NCBI GenBank assembly: GCA_030324005.1
Contig: JARDVH010000042.1
Coordinates: 88,805,867 to 88,869,866, forward strand
Reading direction: 5' to 3'
Source: Negaprion brevirostris
Taxonomy: Eukaryota
Length of the DNA: 64,000 nt
Shown here one piece after another: positions 76 through 61,546 of this stretch (positions are counted from its first letter, which is position 1; each line of letters begins with the position of its first letter). The translations under genes were made by a program, and so were the position numbers. Below the pieces are notes generated by a model. The model did no database searches. It was not told the DNA's origin and saw only the letters and a list, made by a program, of their open reading frames with translations.

Positions 76-690
76 AGCGTTGGACTGGGGTAAACACAGT
101 AAGAAGTCTCACAATAACAGATTAAAGTCCAACAGGTTTATTTGGTAGCAAACCCCACCAGCTTTCGAAGCGCTGAGGTGAGTGGGAGTTCTGTTCATAA
201 ACAGGGCATATAAAGACATAAACTCAATTTACAGAATAATGATTGGAATGCAGGTCTTTACAGCCAATCAAGTCTTAAAGATACATGAGTGGAGAGAGCA
301 ATCATCAGGCAAGACTGTTGTCTTCCTGTTGGGGAACACTTCAGCGGTCACGGGCATTCTACCTCTGATCTTTGGGTAAGCGTTCTCCAAGGCGGCCTTC
401 ATGACACATGACAACTCAGAGTTGCCGAGCAATGACTGATAGCCAAGTTCCGCACACATGAGAATGGCCTCAACCAGGAGCTTGGGTTCATGTCACACTA
501 TCTGTAATCCCCACCACTTGCCTGGACTTGCAAAATCTCATTAACTATCCTGAATGGAGACAATTCACACATCTTTAACCTGTGTTTCGCCTTCTCTCCA
601 CTTGTATTGACTGTAGCTGTAAAAACTTGATTACCTGTTAAAACTCACATTCCAACCATTACCTTGTAATTGAGTCTGTGTCTATATATG
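76..690 (+). mobile_element. Penelope-like element 3' remnant (GIY-YIG endonuclease C-terminus plus 3' UTR) with an inverted copy of its 3' end upstream
   Basis: 301-507 translates to IIRQDCCLPVGEHFSGHGHSTSDLWVSVLQGGLHDT*QLRVAEQ*LIAKFRTHENGLNQELGFMSHYL*, matching the Penelope GIY-YIG C-terminal pattern (PVxEHF..H..DL.V..EQ.LI.KF.T..GLN); two internal TGA stops. ~205-298 is the reverse complement of ~593-690. Confidence 0.85.
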
Positions 691-844
691 TACCACAATG
701 CAATACATTTTGATTTCAATTCATTGATTGAAAGATAAAGCTGTCCACCAGATCATGGGTTACTAGGTGTGGTGATGCATATGGACACAGCAAAAATAGG
801 CCACAACTGTCTTGAAATAAAATGAAAAGATATCAAAAATATAT

Positions 845-1059
845 CAGTCCAAAAATGTGCATGTTAGGTGGATTGGCCATATTAAATTGCCCTTAGTGTC
901 CAAAGAGGCATAAGTTAGATGAGTTAGCAGAGTTAATGTGTGGAATTACGGGATAGGGTGAGGGAGCGGGCCTGGGTAAAATACTCTGTCAGAGAGTTGG
1001 TGCAGACCCGATGGGCTGAATGGCCTCTTCTGCACGGTAGGCATTCGATGATTCTATGA
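845..1059 (+). mobile_element. HE1-type V-SINE, 5'-truncated
   Basis: CAGTCCAAAAATGTGCATGTTAGGTGGATTGGCCAT core and ATGGGCTGAATGGCCTCTTCTGCAC...TTCTATG tail shared with other copies in the window. Confidence 0.85.
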
Positions 1060-2200
1060 AAAATAATCAACTTTTCTCAGCTTTCACATTCTGTTTTCTC
1101 AAAAGCTTGTTTCTTGCTCATTATTTTGTGTCCTCCTCCTGCAGTTTTGACCATTTGCTGGGTCTGTCTGTCTGGTGATATTTGCTGTATTTCTTTGATA
1201 CCGTCTGTTGTTCTCCCTTGACACATCACGCTAGTCCCAATGCTGATCACAGCAAATGGCACAAGTACAGTCCTTAGGCGTTCCAGTAGATCTGGGATTT
1301 GTAAATTAATGTTACTGATTAATCACAAAATTCACTGGCAGGTGGAGAGTCTAACAAGCAGGTAATGGTTTACAGTAAATCCTTTTGACGGATGGGGTGG
1401 GAGGGAGGTGGGGTAGTTTTAGTACCCAAGAAAGGATGGATGATTAAATAAGTTAATTTTTACCTTCTGAGTAAAACCTGGTTCCAAAATGCCCATTTCT
1501 GGGTTTAATTGAGACGTGTTTGGACCCCTACGAAAAAGCTTCTTGGTACAGCTCAGACATTCATTAGTGCAGGCAGGCAGGTGGACAGCGCAGCATTTAG
1601 GAGACATGAATGAGATCTTTCCATACTGAATTCTACTTAGATTTAAATTTAACATCCCTGNNNNNNNNNNNNNNNNNNNNNNNNNNNNNNNNNNNNNNNN
1701 NNNNNNNNNNNNNNNNNNNNNNNNNNNNNNNNNNNNNNNNNNNNNNNNNNNNNNNNNNNNCAGCTATTTTTCAAAGTCAAACCAGGCAAGTTGATTCTGA
1801 TTGGTGAAGGCATTGTCATGGGATTGAACTCGGGAATGGAGTTGCCCAAGCTTTTGGTAAATTAATCTTACATCCCTTCAGCAGCATGGTGAGATTTGAA
1901 CATCTGTCTTAGGAGCGTTAGGCCAAACCCCTGAACAACTAGTCCAGTAACACTATCACTATTCTTTTACCCCTGCTAGATACAATTTTGAAGGTTTCTT
2001 TTCTTATGATTGGTTATATATATATTGTTTTAATCATTAATTAGTTTTTCTGAGAAAGTCACCGTTTTTGGATGTTTCAGATGTTTCCCCTCTAATCTCT
2101 TTTATTCTTAGCTTTTGGTTCCTGTTTGCTTTGATGTGACCCAGGATCAAAGACAAGTTTTTCTTTGGATGATCAACTGGAGCCTAATTATACAGCTACA

Positions 2201-6929: not shown

Positions 6930-7745
6930 TACTGTAGCTACAAGAGATCAGATGCTGGGGTTCTGTGAAGAGTATCTCACCTCCTGACCCCCCAAAGCCT
7001 GTNNNNNNNNNNNNNNNNNNNNNNNNNNNNNNNNNNNNNNNNNNNNNNNNNNNNNNNNNNNNNNNNNNNNNNNNNNNNNNNNNNNNNNNNNNNNNNNNNN
7101 NNATCTCAACTCCTGACCCCCCAAAGCCTGTCAACCACCTACAAGAGACATGTTAGGAATGTGACGGAATACTCTTCAGTTGCTTGGATGAATGCAGTTC
7201 CAATAACATTCAAGAAGCTCAACACCATCCAAGACAAAGCAGCCTGCTTGATTGACATCCTATCCACCAACATTCGCTCCCTCCACCACTGACGCCCACC
7301 TTCCAATTCACACACCATCCTGGAACTGTATCACCATTCTTCCACTGTCAGGGGGTCAATTCTTGGCTTGGTTCAATTCCTGCACATTCTCCCCATCTCT
7401 GCATGGATTTCCTCCCACAGTCCAAAAGATATGCTGGTTAGGCGCACTGGCTATGCTAAATTCTCCTCAGTGTACCTGAAGAGGTGTGTCGGAGTGTGGC
7501 AACTAGGGGATTTTCACAGTAACTTCATCATAGTGTTAATATAAGCCTACTTGTGATGTTAATAAATAAACTTAAAACAAAACCCTGGAACTCCCTTTCT
7601 AGCAGCAATCTGCATGTACCTACACTGCAAGGACTGCAATGGTTTAGAAAGGCAGCTCACCCCACCCTCCTCAAGGGCAATTAGAGGTGGACAATTAATG
7701 CTGGCCTAGCTAGTGACACCCACATTCATGAATGAATAAAGAAGC
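6930..7745 (+). mobile_element. CR1-group LINE 3' fragment with a nested V-SINE variant (7380-7575)
   Basis: CTCACCTCCTGACCCCCCAAAGCCTGTC, TTGCTTGGATGAATGCAGTTCCAA and tail CTCAAGGGCAATTAGAGGTGGACAATTAATGCTGGCCT, shared with 24190-24668 and 60615-61546. Confidence 0.75.
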
Positions 7746-29125: not shown

Positions 29126-29694
29126 ATTTTGCTCGTCTTCCAGTGTACTGCTTAAAGTCAGCCATCTTCCTAATATTTCAGGCCTATATGGTTTGCAACA
29201 GAGCACTGGCTAATTCAGTGATATCAGCTGAACCAGACATTCCTTGCAGGTCTCCTCTCCCATAAAGGGTAACCCGCCATTTTGCCCACTCCTACTGAAG
29301 CTGCAGCACAGACGTCAATAGAAGTGATCAAATTTCCTGGCATTTAGCATGGGCCACATTCAATCCAACTCATTGAAGCAAAAGATAAGGTATATCGGTA
29401 TTTATTTATTTTTAGATTTTATTTAGAGCTCTTGATTCCTGGCTTGAATTATTGCATTGACAGCTGTATCAAGTGCCTGAGCTGAGCTTCGTCTTGGATA
29501 AGGACAGGAGGACCACTTGTCACTACAGATCTTTGTGCTGCAACGACTGACAATACCTCACAATTCTGTAGAAAGCTTTTTCTCTTGACTATTATTCTAA
29601 ATCTCTTGCCTTCTATATTGCATATATTTCCTCCCCCCCAATTACTGGAAGAGGCTACATCTGCTTACATCAGCCTTGATATTCTTTCTTTCCG

Positions 29695-30097
29695 TTGTAT
29701 CACAGCTTGGTATGGTTCCTGCTCTTTCCAAGACCGCAAAAAACAACAACATATAATTCTATCTTTACTTCCCACTGCTTTGGAAAAACAGCCAGCATAA
29801 TCAAGGACCCCTCACACCCCAGACATACTCTCTTCCACCTTCCTCCGTCAGGAAAAAGATACAAAAGTCTGAGGTCACATAACAACCAACTCCACAACAG
29901 CTTCTTCACTAGTGCCATCAGACTTTTTGAATGGACCTAACTTGTATTAAGTTGATCTTTTTCTACACCCTAGCTTATGACTGTAACATTATATTCTGCA
30001 CCCTCTCCTTTCCTTCTCTATATACAGTATGCTGTCGGTAATAGGATGCAAAAAAAACTTTTCACTATGTAATACATGTGACAATAAATCAAATCAT
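29695..30097 (+). mobile_element. Rex1/Babar-like LINE 3' end
   Basis: CITAWYGSCSFQDRKK / TSHCFGKTASIIKDPSHPRHTLFHLPPSGKRYKSL; tail TGTGACAATAAATCAAATC. Confidence 0.85.
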
Positions 30098-32439
30098 AAT
30101 TTAAAATACTGTATCTCTCACATTTGACTGGAATGCATGTTTTGAACATGAAGGGATACAAAGTCAAAATGATCTGGCTCTTACCCATTCTGATTAAGGA
30201 TGCACTAAGTTTGTTTGATTTCCTGTGTTCCTAAGTGCTCATATATAATTGGCTACCTCAGTGGTTACATGCAAGCCACAAAGTACTGTGTAAATAGTAA
30301 TGGATCCTCCACTGTGTTGGTGGGAACTTCTAAGGCAATCCTTTACTCAGTAACATATACTGTTCAAATAAAGTATCCTCTTCTGTTTTTCAAGGTATTG
30401 GATGACATTTTTTCCAGGTGGCATCATCAGTTCATTGCACTATTGACATGGCACATGGTGATGGGATTTGGGTTAGTGTTAGTGGTTACAGTTAGAAACC
30501 ATTATTGAAAACACCATGATCACTGGTCTCACTCTTTCTCATTTATCTTTCACGCAGACAAATCACAAATTAAGCTCATGAATTGTTAATTCAAGGAACT
30601 TTCTTCTGAGCCCTGATTTCCCCCCTCCTTTTGCATCACTATGTTGATCACAGGAAGATGATGACATCAGACATTCAAAATTTAGCACAAGAACAAACAA
30701 TTTCAGGTTTATGCTAGTTATACTCACTCGGCCATTGCGTAGCAATATCTTCATCCAATTTCCTTCACTGGAGCTGGTTTTGCCACCATGACTATTCCCC
30801 ATATTAATACCGGTCAACTCCCATGGGGGGAGGGGGCAGTTTATGGGAAACCATAAAAAATAATCCCAGAGTTAGTCCACTTATAATTATCAAATTGCTC
30901 AAGCAAGCTCTGCAGAATTTGTTCATTTTAACCTTAGCTAAAACAGGGATGCGCAGACTCAGTGAAAACCATATGGGTTCCCAAGACCTACTGACCCTCA
31001 CAAATGAGTGGCTGCCTTTAAAAGCACTGGAGTTTAGAAAAACACAAAGACTAAAGGGACAATTATTTATTCTGCAGAATGTGATTCTCCATTGAAAATG
31101 TGACATTTTAGCCAGAATATTTTACAAGCAAAGAATTTCTGGAGCCACGTTTAATCAAAATCTGTAGCAGTTTTTCTCCAAAACTTAGATTTCGACAATT
31201 TGAAAGAATTGTACGTTCAACAGATTTGTTGGAACTGTGTCCCCAGATGTTATCCTATAAAGAAAATATGAAACTTTATCTTTGGTAGCTTTAAAAATGT
31301 GCCTGATTCTGTGATACCCCTAATGACACCAATCCATATGTAAAAAGCAGTTTCTATAGTATTTGTCGGTTTGTTTATCCAAATCCCTGTCATTCTCAAC
31401 AGCCGGCAACCAGTACATCTGGTATATGTAGAACTTCAACCCTTCCCATCCACGAACAAAAATGTTTTGGAATGTGTCATTTGGTGAACGCTCCCTTGCT
31501 GCCAAACGCCAAAAATGCCAGCTAAGAAACTGCTAACAGCAATGGAAATACAAAAGCTCCTGATCTCGCTGCTTTAGCAAATGCACGTAGAGCTTTGCCT
31601 CCCCGACCATGGTGCATCCCGTGACTGTCTCACCACGCATTCAAAGTGAACATTTATCTATTATTGAAACACGCTGACTTTGCAATTAATCTAATCAGTA
31701 CCATTTCTGCTGCTGCGGAATAATAGGTGGCTAATCGCAGTTAATGCAGTATAGTCAGCAAATCAAGCAGTTTCCTCATGTTGGGTCTTGCCTGCATACT
31801 GTTTAGTAGTCTGTAAACACCGCGGGAATGCGCAAAACGCACCACAAATGATGGCACGCAAGTAACACCAGATGTGAACTTTTTTTTACAAAACACCCTC
31901 TTTTCAGCTCACATCACACCTTTAATAACATTATTTGTTAAACACACGGGTTTGTGCCAAGGTGGCCTAACTGATAATTTTCATCTGACTGTGAAGCATT
32001 TTGCTGGTGCTGTCACGATTTGACGCATTCCACAGTGTTTCTCTACCCCCAGTGTGGTTTTGGAAGGATCCTGTTAGTGAGCCTGAACCCCAGCCCGCTC
32101 CTTCCTGCTGCTCACTGATAAACCTTGGTGGGACACAGCTCACTCCCAGTGGATTCCAATCTCACAAAGCATCCCCCCCCCCCACCAATTAACACTTCTT
32201 AAACATCATTTCTCTACTATGTATTCAAATGTGCCGCTTTTATCGTAACCATGACTACTGATCTTCGGCAAAAAATAATCATAGGATGGTGTGGATAGGT
32301 TTCCTTGTTTATCCGATGCTTTCTTTACCCTAAGGTCTGGGCGGNNNNNNNNNNCCCCCCCCCCCATCAACAACATGAAACGATATTGATTATTTGGAAA
32401 GGCGTTCACGTGGTGCACTAGCGTCTTCTGGTAAGGTTA

Positions 32440-32653
32440 TGGTGCGCTGTCTCTGAGCTCCCCTGAGATTTCAGACCTGCTGCTGCTGAAGGAGGATGAG
32501 GATGAGGCTGACTGACTGATAATGTGCATGTGTGTGAATGCTGCCTGCAGTCAGTCTCCCGGAGCTCATCCTGATGGCTGGACCGCAGCAGCAGAGTAGG
32601 AAAGAGGACAGGACATCACCCTTAAAGTCTGCCTGTTACTACTGAACATCGCG
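32440..32653 (+). other. Candidate non-coding exon 1 of SLC24A2 (start uncertain)
   Basis: GC-rich 5'UTR-like sequence ending at donor GCG|GTAAGA (32654), followed by a drop to AT-rich sequence. Confidence 0.55.
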
Positions 32654-33404
32654 GTAAGAATATATATTTCGTATAAAGTGCATGAGATTAAAGTCTTTGG
32701 AAACGTGCAGACTCTCAGGCACATGTGAACGAATTACTTTATCCAGGGATGTGTTTTGTTTTTGCACCTTCTACCGTTATTGTAACGGGATCAAATCGAC
32801 CAGATTTACAATCGATTTCACTCACGGTTCTCCAGCCCCAAGTCCAGATGGGAACATTTGATATTGTTACAAATTGACATTAGGAGTCGGTGAGCGTTGC
32901 TGTTAACCTCCTGACGGAGTCAAAACAAGATTTTATTTTTTTTAATGTACAGACTACATTAGAAAACATCAATATGTCGTGAGCTGCACCTTTCAGCAAA
33001 AGCCTATAAACATTGCAGTGAAATAATGTTGTCCGTAAAACTGTATCTGTCATTTACCCACTCCCTGGAGTAGAGAAAGCATTTGCTTTGCATCCAATTA
33101 CCCTTCAGGCTGCGGGACTCGGCTCCGCTCTCAAGATACCAAACTGTTTCTTGAATAATCGTCTCGCAGGGAATAGTGCAGCATTTCTGATGTTCACAGT
33201 TTGATTTGATCCTCCTCTGCGCCTCTGATCTCCCCGTTCAAAGACGGAAAGGGCAAAAGGAGCTGTCCTTCTGCTGTGACCTGACTTAAGGCGGTAATCG
33301 GCTCGCCCCTGATGGTCAGAAGCAAATTTGATCTGAACGTAAAACAAAATAATATCGCAACAGTCCGCGCTCCGTCTCGACTGTTTGCATTTTCAGAGAA
33401 AAAA

Positions 33405-33527
33405 ACGGAGTGGAAACGTTAACTCTATTTTTTTCTCTCTCTAGGTGCTATCAGACCCGCTGAGTTTTCCCCCCCAGCATTTCCTGTTTGTGTTACAGAT
33501 TCCAACATCCGCAGTGTTTTGCTTTCA
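33405..33527 (+). mobile_element. One arm of a hammerhead-family repeat, same family as 38384 and 60702
   Basis: GAAACGTTAACTCT...CTCTCTAGGTGCTATCAGACCCGCTGAGTTTTCC...CAGCATTTCCTG...AGATTCCAACATCCGCAGT; reverse-complement homologue of 60705-60810. Confidence 0.75.
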
Positions 33528-33799
33528 TGTTGTCATTATCTGTCCGTATTTACTCAAAGGCACTGCCGTTGAAATTGTCCTGCTTCCAGTGAAGCGTTAC
33601 AAGTGTTTTTTTTCCTCCCTCTCCCTCGGAGTTGACGTGACTGCGTCTGGTGCTGCTGCCGGACTTACTTGCCTTTGGCGGGCTGCAGATTCCCTCTTTG
33701 CCACCGCCACATCTTGCCCATGTGGACATTCTTAAATCCTTGGGCTGAGGTGATGAGAGAGTTAACTGATCTATAAAGGCCGTTGCAGTGGATCCTGAT

Positions 33800-33972
33800 C
33801 TCTCCTCTCGCTGTATTTACCAGCAGGGGGGTCACTGGATTGTGATTAAAGGCCAGAACCTTGGCTCTTGTCTCTTTCCCCTCCCTTTCTGTTTGTATGG
33901 CTCAACACCACAGAGGAGGCTGACTTTACCCGGAGCACCAGCCAGTCAGACAGCGGTCGCCTGTAGCTCCTG
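33800..33972 (+). other. Candidate alternative non-coding first exon
   Basis: TATAAAG at 33772-33778, donor CTG|GTAATG at 33973, giving a 194-nt intron to the 34166 acceptor. Confidence 0.35.
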
Positions 33973-34166
33973 GTAATGTAGATAGAGTAGCGGCACCCTT
34001 TTGTATTTTGAAGTAAATTTTGATCACGTCTAGCTCCATTGCATGTGTTTTTTTTTGTTTCAAATTAGCCTGTTCTACATCTGCTTTATGTTCAATTAAA
34101 ACTCAAGGTTTGTAAACTGGTGTTTCAATAAGCTCTTTACATTCAGTCTCACCTTGTTTCCCGCAG

Positions 34167-34347
34167 GATATTGAAGCTCACATCACCTCCACCAGCAGAA
34201 GAAGACAAGACTCATTTTAAAAGTTACTAGTTTTCTTCCCAGCGTCATGAAGACGAATAGTGTATGAAGAACATACTGCTATCAGTCAAGTTTAAAAATA
34301 CTGAGGAAAAAAAATCCTTCCCGCTTCACCTAAAGTAAAGGCCAACC
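34167..34347 (+). other. 5' UTR part of the first coding exon of SLC24A2
   Basis: Acceptor CTCACCTTGTTTCCCGCAG|G ending at 34166; in-frame TAA at 34336-34338; start context CCAACCATGG is a strong Kozak. Confidence 0.8.
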
Positions 34348-35289
34348 ATGGATTCCAAAAGCTTGAAGAGTGAGGCAGTGGAGCAGGGTGTTTGGTGCAG
34401 GGGACAGCAACTTTCTTCGGCGGGCCGGGCATTCCGAAGGCATAAGCAGCAAATGATGAGGAAGCTGAGGCTCCCGCGGATTGTGGGCTTTTTCCTGGGT
34501 CTGTTGGCGCTCTGCGCCTTTTCCCTCCTTTTCAGTGCCTTCGTCTGCACGTCAGCCAACCGAGAGGCTCCCCAGATTAAACGCAGAACTCTGCTGGGGT
34601 TCGAGGAAAAGCAGAAATTTTCCAAGCTTCAGAACTACACCCCCAAATCCGACCTCACTCCAAAGTACGAAGTGCGGGCAGCCACCCTCTCCCTCAACAA
34701 CGAAACGAATGGAGACTATCCTCGCGACATCATTTCGCTGGCTGAAAGAAGGAAAGGAGCGGTGGTCCTCCACATCTTAGGCATGATTTATATGTTCATA
34801 GCCTTAGCCATAGTGTGCGATGAATTTTTTGTACCCTCATTGGCAATTATCATTGATAAGCTGCAGATTTCGGATGATGTGGCAGGGGCAACTTTTATGG
34901 CGGCTGGTGGGTCAGCGCCAGAACTCTTCACTTCTTTAATAGGAGTTTTTATATCTCATAGCAATGTTGGGATTGGGACCATAGTGGGCTCTGCGGTCTT
35001 CAACATCCTATTTGTAATTGGGATGTGTGCTGTATTCTCCAAAGAAATCCTGCACCTCACCTGGTGGCCACTGTTCAGAGATGTGACCTTTTATATTATT
35101 GACCTAATTTTGCTTATCCTTTTCTTCCGGAATAATATCATCGTTTGGTGGGAGAGTGCAATTTTGTTGTTCGCCTATGGATGCTATGTGGTCTTCATGA
35201 AATTCAACTTTGTGCTAGAACGATGGGTGAAAAAGAAGTTGAACAGGAACAAAGTGGTGGAGGCAACAGCAACAGAAAGCGATGAGAAG
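34348..35289 (+). CDS. SLC24A2: Sodium/potassium/calcium exchanger 2 (NCKX2), first coding exon, 314 aa: N-terminal hydrophobic segment, extracellular loop, TM1-5 with alpha-1 repeat; CDS continues beyond the window
   Basis: GDYPRDIISLAERRKGAVVLH, GMIYMFIALAIVCDEFFVPSL, DDVAGATFMAAGGSAPELFTSLIGVF, NVGIGTIVGSAVFNILFVIG, LTWWPLFRD are NCKX1/2 signatures. The short N-terminal loop, RKLRL.R..G.F.GL leader and NRNKVV end favour NCKX2. Phase-0 donor AAG|GTACAG at 35290. Confidence 0.95.
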
Positions 35290-37920
35290 GTACAGGCATT
35301 TAATTTTTAAATTGATTGTAACAGAGTTTAAAGAATTGCCCTCCCTGGTGCCAATGAGCCTTGTGTGAGGACGGCAAGACTGGACTTCCAGAGTTATGAG
35401 ATTTTGCAATTAACGAAGTGTAATTGTTGCACTGAGAATGAGCCTCTGTGTTGACAAGGATATAAATTTTGTAATAGCCAATGTTATCATTTTTTTAAAT
35501 ATGTGGAGACAATTTCCACATGTCTGATTAAATCCTTCAGTGTATGGATGATACTTTTGGCCATAATGTGACATAAATTTTGTATTCAGTCTATGCCCTA
35601 CCACAGAAATCTGTCTAGCCGTAAATTCAATGTTTGGATTTGGGCACATTGGTATCAACAATTGGAGCATGACTAAAACAAAAGCATTGTCAAATTATCA
35701 GGCCATGAGACTTGCTGTACTTTTGACTAGTTTATACTCTGTAGGTGCTCAAAAATTGATATGAGCCCTGAATAATTAGCTACAATTCTCAGCAAGTCAT
35801 CTAAAAACAAATATAACCGTCACTGGAATTTTAGCCAAGTGGTCCACTTCTTTAGAATAAATGCACATTTGTGTTTGAGAAGTCAAAGCCACATTTAAAA
35901 ATTCAGAATAATGGAAATGGGATTATTCTACACTGTACTTATTGATCACTTGAAGGCCACAATGTTGCACTGTATAGGAAATGTGAGAAAAATCACACTG
36001 ATATGGTCGAGAACGATCCATTTCTAGCATAGGCTCAGGATAAGGATGTTAGAGCAGAATAGGGGAGCTCTAATTTTGATCTGTTGTACGGTATTTGAAG
36101 AGGATGGTTGTTCCTAATTTAGGTTTGCCAGAATGTTTTAATTTCCAGCACTGAAATAACTTTTGGCATGTAATTCTGCTTTATCAATTGTTAACTTTTT
36201 AAAGGAAAGGAAGCTGTAGTTTCTCTTTTTGTCTGTCTTTCTTTTGTTCTATACAAATGAATCTTTTTGAAGGGGTTGTGCATTTATCAAAATTCATCTG
36301 CACATATTAACCCTTTTCATGCAAAACTTGCCTGGATTAAGATCTGACCAAGTTAGAACGATATGTACATAGAATGTTGTCACAGAAGCCAACTATTTGA
36401 AATGCACATGAATTTTAATTTTACCGTTTTTGGCGAGGATAATGTTCCTGTCCTCTGATCTCTATGCTGTTCCAGGCTTTAACTCTTAAGCTTTTGAGAT
36501 GCAGGTGATTCTTTGCAATTTTCCATCCCTCTTTGAACAGAAGTACTTGTTCCCTGCTCGCTGGCTTGCCAGGATACTCTGGTTGAGATATGTAACCTGG
36601 GAGACAATCCACATATACATTGCCGCAAAACATCAGAGCTTTGAAACATCAGTGGTGTTTCCACACTTCTCCAATTCACATATTCTTAAATGATGGCTTG
36701 CTACAGTGTACACTGTTCTTTCATTAGCAAACTGCAGCCAACAGTTAAGAGCTCAGTTAATAAAGTATTTTAATATGGCCCTTGCCCACCTTTTGAGTTT
36801 GACCCTTTGCACTGTTATCAGTAATTTATCAGTAATTTCCACACTGATGTAGTCAATATTAGCAACTTGGAGGGTGGTACAACGTATAGGTGGCCAGGCT
36901 AAAGGCAACAACTTGAGCTTTGAATATTACTGCATGTGCAGTAAGAGTTTTGGAGAAAATTGCATGTTTGAATCTGTGCAGAAACATAATACGATGATCG
37001 CGATGACATTATTTATTGCGTGTTACTTATTACTTTGTTGGTGCAGTATTAAGAATTCAGCTGAGATGGGCTGACTTTGTGGCGGTTGGAGTATGAGATT
37101 TTGACTTCGGTGAGAACTATGCAAGTCGGCAAGGTCTCAGGCAAAGTCTAAATTGGGGGAATGGATTTGGAAATTAATAGCTCTCCCAAGGGCAAGGCTC
37201 TGATGTGTGAGGCACTGTTGGCTGTGTTAATATATTTAGAGGACTTCCTGTTGACTACTTGCACAATACTGTATGTCAAAACATCTATGATCTAATTTGA
37301 CTAGATCAGCTTTTTTTGTATTTTTAGAAATCCAAGGACTCAAAGTTGTACAGCATTTGGGAGTTTAACATTGACCAATTGTCAGGTTATGCTGAATTAC
37401 AAAAAATATCTCCAAGGGGAATTGCAGATCTGCCTGACAATTCAGCCACATCATCTGCTCAGAAGGGATTCTGTTGTTGTTGGTTCTACAGTGATTAATA
37501 CCTTGAAATAAACATAAAATTGGTAGCACAGATCTCGAAGTTACTGGTTACTGAGCAAAATTTAATTCAGTACTGCTATCAATCTACATTTGCATTTTCA
37601 ACTTCTCTGTGTTATGTTCATAATTGTTTTTGTTTTTCAACATGTTTTTCTATTGTCAGAGGTGTCCATTATTGGCTAAACATCTTTCTTAACAATTAGA
37701 TTTGTAATATAATGATGGTCTATAGGTCAAATCATTATTAGCACTAAAATTGCAAATACCTGGATCATCATTTGGGTGTGCCGGGTGATAAACAGTAGAA
37801 AAACCTCTGTTAACAGTATGTTGCGAGGCAGGGACACATTGAGACCCTCAGTTTACATTCAGCTACAAGAGTGAAGTTATACTTTACTAATATCACCACT
37901 ATCTTGAAATTTGATGTTGT

Positions 37921-38262
37921 GAGGGGCACAGTGCTTAGCACTGCTGCCTCACATCGCCAGGGATTCAGGTTTGATTCCTGGCTTGGATCACTGTCTCTGC
38001 GGAGTTTGCACGTTCTCCCCGTGTTTTCTCCGGGTGCTCTGGTTTCTTCCCACAGTCCAAAAATGTGCAGGTTGGGTGCATTGGCCATGCTGAACTGCCC
38101 CTTAGTCCAAAAATGTGTAGGTTAGGGGGATTAGTGGGGTAAATGCATGGAAATATAGGATGGATGGGTTGGCAGGGGAGTGGACCTGGGTAAAATGCTC
38201 TGTTGGAGAGTTGGTGCAGCCTCTGAGCCAAACAGCCTCCTGCACTGTAGGGATTCTATGAT
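37921..38262 (+). mobile_element. HE1-type V-SINE, full length
   Basis: GGCACAGTGCTTAGCACTGCTGCCTCAC head, V core, tail TGCACTGTAGGGATTCTATG. Confidence 0.9.
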
Positions 38263-38383
38263 CCGACATATCATCGTCTGACGTACTTATTCTGTGTATA
38301 ATTAAGGACTGCTAACTGTTATTGCTGGTAAAAGCAGCAATGAACAACAGGCTTGCATTACCAAATCAAATGATGCGATGCAT

Positions 38384-38548
38384 AAACGGAAAATTCTGGA
38401 AACGCTCAGGAGGGCGGCATCTGTGAAGAGAGAAACCGATCAACCTATCCAGTCAAGAGTTCTAATGAAAGTTTAATCATTAATTTCCTTCCTCTCTCCA
38501 CAAATGCTGCCTGACCTGCTGAGTGTTTCCAGAATCTTCTGCTTTTTA
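38384..38548. mobile_element. Fold-back (palindromic) hammerhead-family element
   Basis: Left arm AAAATTCTGGAAACGCTCAG...GGCATCTGTGAAGAGAG pairs with right arm CTCTCTCCACAAATGCTGCC...CTGAGTGTTTCCAGAAT; central AGAGTTCTAATGAAAG. Confidence 0.8.
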
Positions 38549-39854
38549 ATTCAAGATTTCTAGTGCTTGGAATATTTCATTATATATACTTGGAAGCCAT
38601 TTGAGCATCATTAGCATCCCTACAGTGCAGAAGGAGGCCATTCAGCTCANNNNNNNNNNNNNNNNNNNNNNNNNNNNNNNNNNNNNNNNNNNNNNNNNNN
38701 NNNNNNNNNNNNNNNNNNNNNNNNNNNNNNNNNNNNNNNNNNNNNNNNNNNNNNNNNNNNNNNNNNNNNNNNNNNNNNNNNNNNNNNNNNNNNNNNNNNN
38801 NNNNNNNNNNNNNNNNNNNNNNNNNNNNNNNNNNNNNNNNNNNNNNNNNNNNNNNNNNNNNNNNNNNNNNNNNNNNNNNNNNNNNNNNNNNNNNNNNNNN
38901 NNNNNNNNNNNNNNNNNNNNNNNNNNNNNNNNNNNNNNNNNNNNNNNNNNNNNNNNNNNNNNNNNNNNNNNNNNNNNNNNNNNNNNNNNNNNNNNNNNNN
39001 NNNNNNNNNNNNNNNNNNNNNNNNNNNNNNNNNNNNNNNNNNNNNNNNNNNNNNNNNNNNNNNNNNNNNNNNNNNNNNNNNNNNNNNNNNNNNNNNNNNN
39101 NNNNNNNNNNNNNNNNNNNNNNNNNNNNNNNNNNNNNNNNNNNNNNNNNNNNNNNNNNNNNNNNNNNNNNNNNNNNNNNNNNNNNNNNNNNNNNNNNNNN
39201 NNNNNNNNNNNNNNNNNNNNNNNNNNNNNNNNNNNNNNNNNNNNNNNNNNNNNNNNNNNNNNNNNNNNNNNNNNNNNNNNNNNNNNNNNNNNNNNNNNNN
39301 NNNNNNNNNNNNNNNNNNNNNNNNNNNNNNNNNNNNNNNNNNNNNNNNNNNNNNNNNNNNNNNNNNNNNNNNNNNNNNNNNNNNNNNNNNNNNNNNNNNN
39401 NNNNNNNNNNNNCCGAACTGGCTATTCTTTAGATTTTCCCCATTAAAGACTGACCATTCCTCTAAATTTGTGGCTGCCGTCTACCAGATGTAACGAGTGG
39501 CCCAGATTTGAAAATATTTCCAGTAAATGAAAACTTTCAACCAACACTGGGCTATTTTTCCATTACACCTATCTTCTGTTTTTATTGATGCTGCAGTGTG
39601 AATTTTAACTGACGTTTCTGGTAACCGTTAAAACTATATAATTGAACATTTACTCAGCAACCTCCATACCATCTAACGGGAACAAATTCTATCTTCCAGT
39701 GATGCTACCGCATTTTACAGGCCATTGCCTATAGTGGGCAAATCGTATTCGACCAAATAGCCTTGTTGTAAAGTGGTGGGGACAGGACAGAAGTTTCCAA
39801 ATCTATTTGCATTTCCATTTATGCAATCTGTCTGGAAGCATCTCCTTTAGAAAC

Positions 39855-40342
39855 CATAGAATCCCTACAATGCAGAAGGAGGCCATTTAACCCATTGACT
39901 CCTCCAACTCTCTGAAGAACATTTGTTCCCAGGTCTATCCCCCATCCTATCCCCATAACTCTGTACATTTACCATAACTAATCCACCTAACGTACACATC
40001 TTGGGACAGCAAGAGGCAATTTAGAGTGGTCAATCCACCTAACTCGCATATCNNNNNNNNNNNNNNNNNNNNNNNNNNNNNNNNNNNNNNNNNNNNNNNN
40101 NNNNNNNNNNNNNNNNNNNNNNNNNNNNNNNNNNNNNNNNNNNNNNNNNNNNGCAATTTCTTAGCATAGCCAATCAACCTAACCCGCACATCTTTGGACT
40201 GTGGGAGGAAACCGGAGCACCCGGAGGAAGCCCACACAGACATGGGGAGGATGTGCAAACTGCACACAGACAGTGATCCGAGGCTAGAATTGAACCTGGG
40301 TCCCTGACGCTGTGAGACAGCAGTGCTAACCACTGCCACCCT
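39855..40342 (-). mobile_element. HE1-type V-SINE(s) spanning a gap
   Basis: CATAGAATCCCTACAATGCAGAAGGAGGCC tail; GGAGGAAACCGGAGCACCCGGAGGAAGCCCAC core; head CAGTGCTAACCAC. Confidence 0.85.
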
Positions 40343-40939
40343 GTTGTAGGCTTTTAAAAGATAGTTTGGCCTGCAGCCTGTGTTCAGTAGGAAACTTGTT
40401 TGTTTGGCTCCCTCACATTGAGTCACCCTGTGTCACACCCTAACAGATACCATCTAATTCCTTCCCAGGTTGAACTACTTAAATTGGCTGAGGGGAGTGA
40501 AGGATTCAATGTGTAAAGGAGAGTTAAATGTGGTTTGGGGCTGAACAACACTAGGCAGGGAGTTTGTGCAGAAACTCATGAACTTGGAGTGCTTTTCCCT
40601 CTATTTTTCATGGATCATGAAGTGATCGTGATACTTTCCTATTCCTCATCATCTTCTGCCACTGTTGCTAATGAAAACAGGAAAGAAGGGTAGGAGAAAA
40701 GAATTAGTGGCTATTACTGCTTTCAGAAGAGGATTGCTAATGTCTGTAGTGTTTGAGATACTAGGCTTAACAGTGTTCAGTCAGCAACTTGTGGGAATAT
40801 GCTCTGGCATGCTATGAACTGAGTGTTTCTCCATGAGCTCCAAAACCTTTTGTTGAAGAGGCTGTAGTATGCCCAAAACGGCAAAACAAGTTGATCAGAA
40901 TGTTCTTTTGGGGGTGCGGGGGGGAAAGAAAGTCTTGAT

Positions 40940-41330
40940 CCTTGGTTTTATACAATGAAGCATAAGATAGAAAAACAAGCGAGTTTCGCTACTGCGTTAT
41001 AAATTACTGGCTAGGCTTCAACTGGGGCAACTGGTTCAATACTGGGCACCCCCACTTGGAAAAAGTGCAGAAGAAGTTTGCTAGAATGAGACTAATGAGA
41101 AGAAACTGGGGGAGCTGAAATTGTTCTCCTTGGATAAATCTCCTCTGATTTAAAAAGTATTCAAATCGAGGGGTTTTGATTGAGTACCTGGTGAGAAACT
41201 TTACCAATCATCCTGGCAATAAACAAAGGATATTTAAGGTAATTAAAAGAACCAGTGGCAAAATGAGAATTTTGTTTTTGTTGCAAGTTGATGATCTGGA
41301 ATGCCCAGTCTGAAAAAAGAGAGAGGGGGG
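40940..41330 (+). mobile_element. Decayed CR1 ORF2 C-terminal fragment
   Basis: TATAAATTACTGGCTAGGC...TGGGCACCCCAC...AAAGTGCAGAAGAAGTTTGCTAGAATG (Y..L.RP...W.P...KVQKKFARM). Confidence 0.6.
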
Positions 41331-41956
41331 GTGGATTCTGTAATTCTTTCCTTCAGAATCTGTGGACGCTATGAGAATTGAAATATTTAATACTGTTAGA
41401 CATTTTAGATTTTTATAAGTTAGTGTATCGATGGACATGGAGATCAATCATTTGAATGACATAAGGATTTCAAATGTGGATTTCGCAATTTGTGGTTAAA
41501 ATTGCAACATAAATTAGTTCTAGCAATAAACAATTGCAGTTCAGGTAAACTAAATGATAAGTAAACATTCTTGTCAGGAAATTGCGGGTTGGTGACTGTG
41601 AGCGTGAGGTCCAATCCCAGTTGTGTATTGCTTTTCCATTGTTATGTTCAACTGTATTCGCTGTCTAAGCCAACAAATTGGTTTTCACTGGCCCTAGAAG
41701 GGTATGTCCAATTTCTATGTTCTACCTGGTGATCTAGGCATGCTGTTTGGAAGAAGGCGTAGCCCCAGGGTATTTCATAAATCTGTTCCTGCAAGCAGTA
41801 CAAATCTACAAAGGAACAATGGCAAAGTTAAAGCTAATGCTGGAACAGCTCTTTACTTTCTCTTGTTGGTTACTCCTAGCTACCTCCATCTGCTGTCCAC
41901 TGTCTGCAGCTGAAAGGGAAGAAACAAAATGCCCCCAGGGAACAGCAATTGCTGTA

Positions 41957-60430: not shown

Positions 60431-60614
60431 GCTTGTAGAGAAAATAATTTCACTTCAGGGCAGACCATGGTTAGGAATCAGAAGTAGAAAAGAGTCACAG
60501 ATAAATCCATTAGAGAATTTAGAAGAAAACTCTTCATTGAGAAACTGATTTAGAATGTGGAAATAGTAGTTCAATAAATATCAGATTGGTTTAACGTGGA
60601 AGTGACATAATCAC

Positions 60615-61546
60615 ATGTCTTAGGCCCAACCATCTTCAGTTGCTTCATCAAAACCTTTCTTCTATCATAAAGTGAGGATGTGCAGTCATCAGTGAACAAT
60701 GGGTAAAAGCAAATTACTGCGGATGCTGGAATCTGAAACCAGAAAAGAAAATGCTGGAAAATCTCAGCAGATCTGGCGGCATCTGTAAGGAGAGAAAAGA
60801 ACTGACATTTCAAGTCTAGATGACCCTTTTTCAAAGCTTTGACAAAAGATCATCTGGATTCGAAACCTCAGCTCTTTTTTTCTCTCCTTACAGGTAATGC
60901 TAGACTATCAGTGAACAATGTTCAGTATTGTTCGCAACTCCTCAAATACTGAAGCAGTACGTGTCCAATTGAAGCAAGACCTGAACAGTATCCAAGATTG
61001 GATTGACAAGTAGAATTTGAGCTACATGAGTGCTGGGCAATGACTACCTCCAACAAGAGAGGATTTAACCATTACCCTTTGACATTCAATGACATTACCA
61101 TCGCTGAATCTCTGATTATTAGCATCCTGCGAATTACCATTGGCCAGAAACTGTATTGGCCTAGTCATATAAAAACTGTGGCTACCAGAGCAAGTCAAAA
61201 GCTAGGAATCCTACAGCGAGTAACTTGCCTCCTGCAGGGCCCCGCCCCCCACAAGGCACAAATCAGGAACTTATTAGAATACTGTCCACTTGCCTGGATG
61301 AGTGCAGCTCAAACGACATTGAAGACAAAGTAGCCTGATTGATTACCACCTCTTCCACAAACATTTAATGCCTTAACCTCCAATGAATAGTGGCAGCCAT
61401 GTGTACCAACTACAAGTTGCACTGCAGGAACTCACCAAGGAATTAGGCAGCACCATGGTCACTGCCACCTTCTCAAGGGCAACTAGGGATGAGCAATAAA
61501 TGCTGGGCCAACCAGCGACGCGCACATCCCATATATGCATGAAAAA
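60615..61546 (+). mobile_element. CR1-group LINE RT and 3' end, interrupted at the catalytic motif region
   Basis: LGPTIFSCFI..., KQDLNSIQDWIDK, HIKTVATRASQKLGILQRV, KAQIRNLLEYCPLAWMSAA; tail CTCAAGGGCAACTAGGGATGAGCAATAAATGCTGG. Confidence 0.85.
60702..60906. mobile_element. Fold-back hammerhead-family insertion with 14-bp target-site duplication
   Basis: ATCAGTGAACAATG at 60688-60701 and 60907-60920; palindrome centred on TCAAAGCTTTGA. Confidence 0.85.

Follow-up and report, generated by a model that had tools for sequence, protein, structure and literature searches.

Insertions of Penelope-like elements (PLEs) have been described with head-to-head inverted pLTRs, palindromes at the junctions and target site duplications (TSDs) of 8-10 bp (Arkhipova 2013, PMC3846280), and with a tail of 30-40 bp at one end only (Craig 2021, PMC8557442). 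It is common for PLE insertions to include a truncated, inverted copy in head-to-head orientation (PMC3846280, PMC8557442). Self-priming was proposed for the inverted PLE ends (PMC3846280); the steps of their formation were considered unvalidated (PMC11167929). The purified Poseidon protein cut and extended both target strands and used two start sites bracketing the tail (PMC11167929). For Schistosoma PLEs, Cervera and De la Pena (2014, PMC4209133) reported a U3-A8 covariant of the hammerhead core as well as motif pairs on opposite strands, 100-700 bp from each other.

In the window, by which we mean the whole 64-kb stretch of DNA that was analysed, a 205-bp insert followed the insertion pattern already described for PLEs. 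We consider it likely that this was a PLE insertion of the type known as "head-to-head inverted pLTR plus tail", that the inverted structure formed during insertion, and that the AGCT of the ribozyme served as a junction hot-spot. The insert shared with the complex insertions of EN+ PLEs (PMC3846280, PMC8557442) a head-to-head inverted copy, a junction palindrome, a TSD enclosing the whole unit and a LINE target, and it had a candidate one-arm extension of about 40 nt like theirs. In contrast to them, it consisted of terminal-repeat sequence only and had no ORF, its TSD was 14 bp long compared to 8-10 bp in the PLEs of A. vaga, and its junction lay inside helix I of the ribozyme and recurred across copies.

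Similar to the minimal hammerheads of metazoan PLEs (PMC4209133), the motifs of the insert had the same core, an unpaired base after A9, a G-C closing pair of helix II, a two-base helix III and a short helix I. However, the two motifs abutted and had one common helix-I strand, whereas the Schistosoma pairs were 100-700 bp apart. The list in Fig. S3 of that work held no cartilaginous fish, and its U3-A8 examples came from Schistosoma only. The Anolis Poseidon element PAc (Frangieh 2024, PMC11167929) also ended about 100-150 nt downstream of its ribozyme and had two end points bracketing the tail, and its protein cut and extended both target strands in vitro. Unlike the insert, PAc possessed an ORF and a C3-G8 core; in the portion of that work consulted, no fold-back products of PAc were mentioned.

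Non-LTR retrozymes (bioRxiv 10.64898/2026.07.22.740005) were non-coding, hammerhead-bearing, PLE-derived repeats like the insert, with one chondrichthyan reported. They formed head-to-tail tandems, whereas the insert was a single head-to-head unit with a TSD; it was therefore rejected as a retrozyme, which would be a head-to-tail tandem of at least two units. Neither the repeat family nor a palindromic PLE unit moving as such was described in the literature searched, although the family may well be present in Repbase or Dfam, which lay outside that search.

Insert, target site duplication and host LINE

The 14-mer ATCAGTGAACAATG was present at 60688-60701 and 60907-60920 (both on the plus strand), where it abutted both ends of the 205-bp insert with 14 of 14 letters identical. 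Perfect 14-mer direct repeats 100-400 bp apart had 53 start positions in the 64-kb window, 52 of which bordered assembly gaps, and the sole other case was the ATCAGTGAACAATG pair. Exact duplications flanking gaps of 100-134 N were seen at window positions 6981/7110, 27809/27954 and 59753/59905, and these were most likely scaffold overlap artefacts. Two extra G (60702-60703) lay between the left TSD copy and the family boundary at 60704 and were probably added without a template.

An orthologous contig from another organism (run X14, record 24) spanned both the centre of the insert and the right junction, differing by 24 letters and 2 gaps over a length of 321. Thus, an assembly artefact could be ruled out, and the insertion predated the split from that organism. 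The left junction was bridged by none of the pieces listed (the longest 32 of about 140,000), and an empty orthologous site was found at none of the 15 joints listed, beside which there were 367 further ones; an orthologous site with a single arm was not encountered either.

Judged by its translated sequence, the host is a long-decayed LINE RT. Its upstream part (60601-60701, plus strand) was decayed and reached from the LGP motif to the FADD region; the downstream part (60921-61330, plus strand) contained stops and frameshifts. In a full protein scan, the stop-free stretch to the right of the insert matched 270 proteins at E up to 0.001. The RVT_1 cut-off was passed by 4 of the 6 scanned homologues, and an AP-endonuclease domain was also found in 3 of the 6. 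Pfam returned nothing for any of the five host-flank translations, and a word-indexed protein search with them was likewise empty. The duplicated 14-mer fell on the D-C-T codons of the aligned LINE RT homologue, in the FADD motif region. The original prediction of a 205-bp insert with a perfect 14-bp TSD inside a LINE RT was thus confirmed, and its proposal of a one-piece insertion was supported, since the data pointed to a single retrotransposition event with a true TSD.

The spacing in the host LINE was 67, 81 or 53 nt with one, both or neither of the 14-mer copies counted, compared to 72-81 nt in homologues, with a mode of 75 (28/150 homologues with both anchors). After the addition of 7 letters seen in one contig, the corresponding values were 74, 88 and 60 nt. 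The comparison tended, though not decisively, towards one copy of the 14-mer in the empty site. A perfect 14-bp TSD next to arms that were 76-79% alike had P 0.02-0.04 under equal decay and a Fisher P of 0.11, a contrast that was not significant and that concerned an insert chosen for its perfect TSD. The perfect TSD beside diverged arms was mildly unexpected.

Structure of the fold-back

The fold-back was centred within AGCT, between 60836 and 60837, and had unequal arms of 135 nt (left) and 70 nt (right) that were 76-79% complementary. Pairing was confined to 60770-60906 (137 of the 205 bp), where a fixed register gave 51 paired positions of 67 and a free alignment gave 53 of 67. No partner existed for the left 68 bp (60702-60769). 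The folding energy of the insert was -84.3 kcal/mol (z -7.6), which none of 200 shuffles equalled. Accordingly, the insert was palindromic as originally proposed, but the palindrome did not extend over its whole length.

The long arm (60704-60836, minus strand) extended from the centre as far as the family end, where loose contig ends were found at 60704; read in the sense of the ribozyme, it was taken as the 3' end of a Penelope-type terminal repeat. The short arm (60837-60906, plus strand) was an inverted 70-nt copy that ended opposite 60770 and had 3 extra letters at about 60875, absent from part of the paralogues. The junction palindrome TCAAAGCTTTGA occupied 60831-60842, and from its central AGCT (60835-60838) the predicted cut lay 33 nt downstream.

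Within the paired zone, each of the 7 listed letters from the family or the orthologue converted a mismatch to a pair. From these letters, the two arms were probably identical when inserted, although the result is weakened by the pooling of reads from both arms in the majority letters, which partly built the convergence in, and 125 further rows were outside the listing. The arm-to-arm difference of 21-24% was of the same order as the difference between copies (16-28 letters in about 130-145).

In all five arms, the ribozyme was followed by a pyrimidine tract that resembled a splice acceptor and closed with YAG or, in one arm, with CAA. It was located at 60780-60800 (minus strand) and 60875-60897 (plus strand), as well as in the arms at 33.4 and 38.4 kb, and the next ATG after the tract in the long arm opened 22 codons. 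Introns occur in PLEs. Additionally, ATGCTGGAA was present twice (60723-60731 and 60751-60759), each copy just inside one family end.

Hammerhead motifs

Minimal hammerhead motifs were found on both strands of the insert. The minus-strand motif (60797-60838) had helix I AGCU/AGUU, the core U3-U-G-A-A-A8-A9 and a helix II of 5 bp, and was altered at 11.1 and 15.2 (CpG-type decay). The plus-strand motif (60835-60873) had helix I AGCU/AGCU, in agreement with the stem I read earlier, the core U3-U-G-A-C-A8-A9 and a predicted C17 at 60869. In this motif A had replaced G10.1, and position 16.2 had become C; the majority letter at 60847 was G in all four runs. In each motif, the 5' strand of helix I was formed by the central AGCT; helix I was 4 bp and helix II 4-5 bp long, with U3-A8 on both strands. 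The motif agreed with the published minimal-hammerhead consensus, also in its U3-A8 core and in the base left unpaired after A9.

The cores predicted earlier for both strands were recovered by a paired descriptor that demanded the core and minimum lengths of 3 bp for helix I and 4 bp for helix II, and that was composed after the motif had been seen. It gave exactly two matches on both strands of the 64 kb, at 60839 (plus) and 60834 (minus), and none in 100 shuffles. A looser regular expression without pairing was uninformative (0.68 matches per shuffle). The insert had no Rfam match at gathering score, and the single motifs did not fold more stably than shuffled sequences (z 1.1 and 0.7).

The original prediction considered the core a decayed CTGACGA. 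This was not borne out, because U3-U-G-A-N-A8-A9 was found on both strands and the U3-A8 covariant had been described in Schistosoma, so that the core was a variant and the damage lay elsewhere in the motifs. Moreover, U3 and A8 were unchanged in every contig-letter row listed, with 125 further rows outside the listing. Little on the activity of U3-A8 hammerheads surfaced in the literature, the original description included. This copy, with its candidate ribozymes, is probably inactive. The possibility that the centre was the ribozyme cut site was ruled out: the predicted cut (60869) was 33 nt from the centre, and thus cleavage did not set the junction.

Repeat family and related copies

In each of four public runs, 29,667-41,734 contigs aligned on 900 bp that included the LINE flanks, and contig depth was highest on the long arm. 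Loose, unrelated, A-rich contig ends accumulated at 60704 in all four runs (1660-2338 contigs per run). The insert is a single copy of a repeat that is very abundant and has a sharp family end at 60704. Further loose ends (645-775 contigs) formed a second cluster at 60746, which may partly reflect subfamily divergence. The loose ends can be read as a retroposon-like shared end and a possible 40-nt tail. The candidate tail of about 40 nt (60704-60745, minus strand) was present in one arm only, and the short arm of the 38384 copy began at the position matching 60746. The ends at 60704 and about 60746 fit the one-sided PLE tail of 30-40 bp.

The centre was bridged by at least 31 letters per side in 12 of the longest 32 of about 140,000 pieces, a selection biased toward pieces that cross the centre. 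One of the 12 was the orthologue, and the other 11 differed by 16-28 letters, which indicated that the centre recurred in paralogues; 6 of these 11 had 0-2 gaps. Two centre-bridging contigs had about 9-11 times the single-copy depth: a 140-nt contig (run X20, record 30) with a depth of 173.5 compared to about 16 for the single-copy flank, and a 3.4-kb contig (run X1, record 6) with 41.6 compared to 4.7.

On the other hand, the right end at 60906 was no family boundary. Its summed depth was 0-11.5 and almost no paralogue aligned there, which may partly stem from the divergence of this copy at that point; the right end thus seems to be one that other copies do not share. Opposite-strand joints at 60741/60877 and 60748/60878 suggest that in the paralogues behind them the short arm extended to about the mirror position of 60741-60748. 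Further opposite-strand joints at 60704/60743 and 60706/60746 (runs X14, X20 and others) were seen in 6 and 8 contigs with short sides, and may represent either tail-to-tail insertions or tandem fold-back units.

Two more diverged and decayed related fold-backs were found in the window at about 33383-33525 and 38384-38583. Both folded at other points beside the ribozyme and had short arms of other lengths. The copy at 33383-33525 had a short left arm and a long arm reaching the family end, and its arms met close to the GAAAC side of the ribozyme. The copy at 38384-38583 had one arm ending at the no-tail position and the other entering the tail, and its right arm opened with a core-like word one letter off CUGAUGA. 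Around these two copies, only 10-11 nt matches with 2 mismatches were found, which were not credible as TSDs. Thus, the proposed check for a fixed centre gave a divided answer: the centre recurred in 11 of the longest 32 pieces, but differed in both of the other window copies, which were more diverged. The surroundings of 33383-33525 had a CpG observed/expected ratio of 0.7-0.8 compared to 0.26 window-wide and are perhaps a CpG island.

The family core pattern was absent from the viral, metagenome and genome collections scanned. With a generic ribozyme pattern, 3 loci were obtained from metagenomes, two of them identical (L002 and L003), and none of the three showed blastn similarity to the element. 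The metagenome record L001 contained a C3-G8 minimal hammerhead (118-144) 161 nt downstream of a Penelope-type GIY-YIG C-terminus (306-1148, minus strand). With its GIY-YIG ORF and like-built motif but no nucleotide match to the element, L001 was considered an analogue. L002 (782-988) was a different, animal-like sequence with a hammerhead-like motif in an inverted repeat of 215 nt that was weak (65%), and is possibly another fold-back PLE end. Within the 64-kb window, no significant match was found to an RT/GIY-YIG gene linked to the repeat family (best E 0.03).

Origin of the fold-back

Several findings stood against the PLE reading, namely that neither the window nor L001 linked an RT/GIY-YIG gene to the family, the exact recurrence of the centre in 11 of the longest 32 pieces, which needs a hot-spot, the two centre-bridging contigs at about 9-11 times the single-copy depth, and the perfect TSD beside diverged arms. 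The recurrence, the depth and the TSD would fit a fold-back that formed a non-autonomous family of its own, in which a master hairpin with the AGCT centre and ends near 60704 and 60743 was transcribed and inserted again in one piece through PLE enzymes; this copy would be a member truncated at its end. The 11 paralogous pieces across this centre, of which 6 had 0-2 gaps, the multi-copy appearance by depth of the X20 and X1 contigs, the perfect TSD in spite of differing arms, and the opposite-strand joints at 60704/60743 and 60706/60746, which could be tandem units, all pointed this way. However, the listed pieces were the longest of about 140,000 and favoured those crossing the centre, contig depth did not equal copy number, and the 3.4-kb contig pointed to a larger duplicated segment. 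Also, no fixed asymmetry between the arms was seen (all 7 listed letters restored pairing), the right end seemed private, and the other window copies were centred elsewhere. We therefore consider a master hairpin unlikely. For the same reasons (the right end, the 7 erased asymmetries and the two window relatives folding elsewhere), the original suggestion that the 205-bp fold-back itself may be the mobile unit was abandoned as the best reading. It is likewise doubtful that the insert belonged to a palindromic SINE-like class of retroposons, that is, protein-free fold-back PLE derivatives with two U3-A8 hammerheads on one helix-I strand that were copied from hairpin masters.

Two separate events, in which a plain truncated PLE end was inserted first and the inverted arm was added later by a second insertion, a template switch during repair or an inversion, would explain why the arms differed at 21-24% of sites. 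This origin was very unlikely given that both arms lay inside one TSD, that the junction was seamless and recurred in paralogues, and that the X14 orthologue had the same centre and right junction. Least credible was an origin as a DNA element of the MITE kind, or as some other palindromic repeat, in which the hammerhead-like words were incidental. The strong hairpin, the empty Rfam search, the absence of a folding advantage of the single motifs over shuffles (z 1.1 and 0.7) and the lack of a linked PLE gene could be taken in its favour. Nevertheless, the inverted arms did not extend to both ends, with 68 bp unpaired, the paired motif occurred 0 times in 100 shuffles, and the one-sided sharp end was retroposon-like. 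A MITE proper was rejected, as its terminal inverted repeats would abut the TSD at both ends and 60702-60769 had no partner.

For the PLE insertion that we prefer, the following course may be proposed. A PLE endonuclease would have cut the dead LINE with a 14-nt stagger, and the left 3'-OH would have primed reverse transcription at the outer (tail) start site of the element. Synthesis of the cDNA would then have passed the ribozyme and, after 133 nt, stopped at the AGCT of helix I, which is self-complementary. In the same event, a second arm may have arisen when the cDNA turned back and copied itself for 70 nt; alternatively, a second cDNA primed from the other cut strand could have annealed through AGCT. 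The arms would have been identical at birth and decayed afterwards. The result would be a 5'-truncated insertion whose two ribozyme motifs were a by-product of the duplication of the terminal repeat.

As it stands, the insert was one more decayed PLE insertion. Yet it hints at a vertebrate family of high copy number whose hammerhead core is of the U3-A8 type and is missed by C3-G8 descriptors and Rfam thresholds. Inserts from such a very abundant family, with the junction on a 4-nt ribozyme palindrome, would provide a large natural data set on fold-back self-priming versus two-strand priming.
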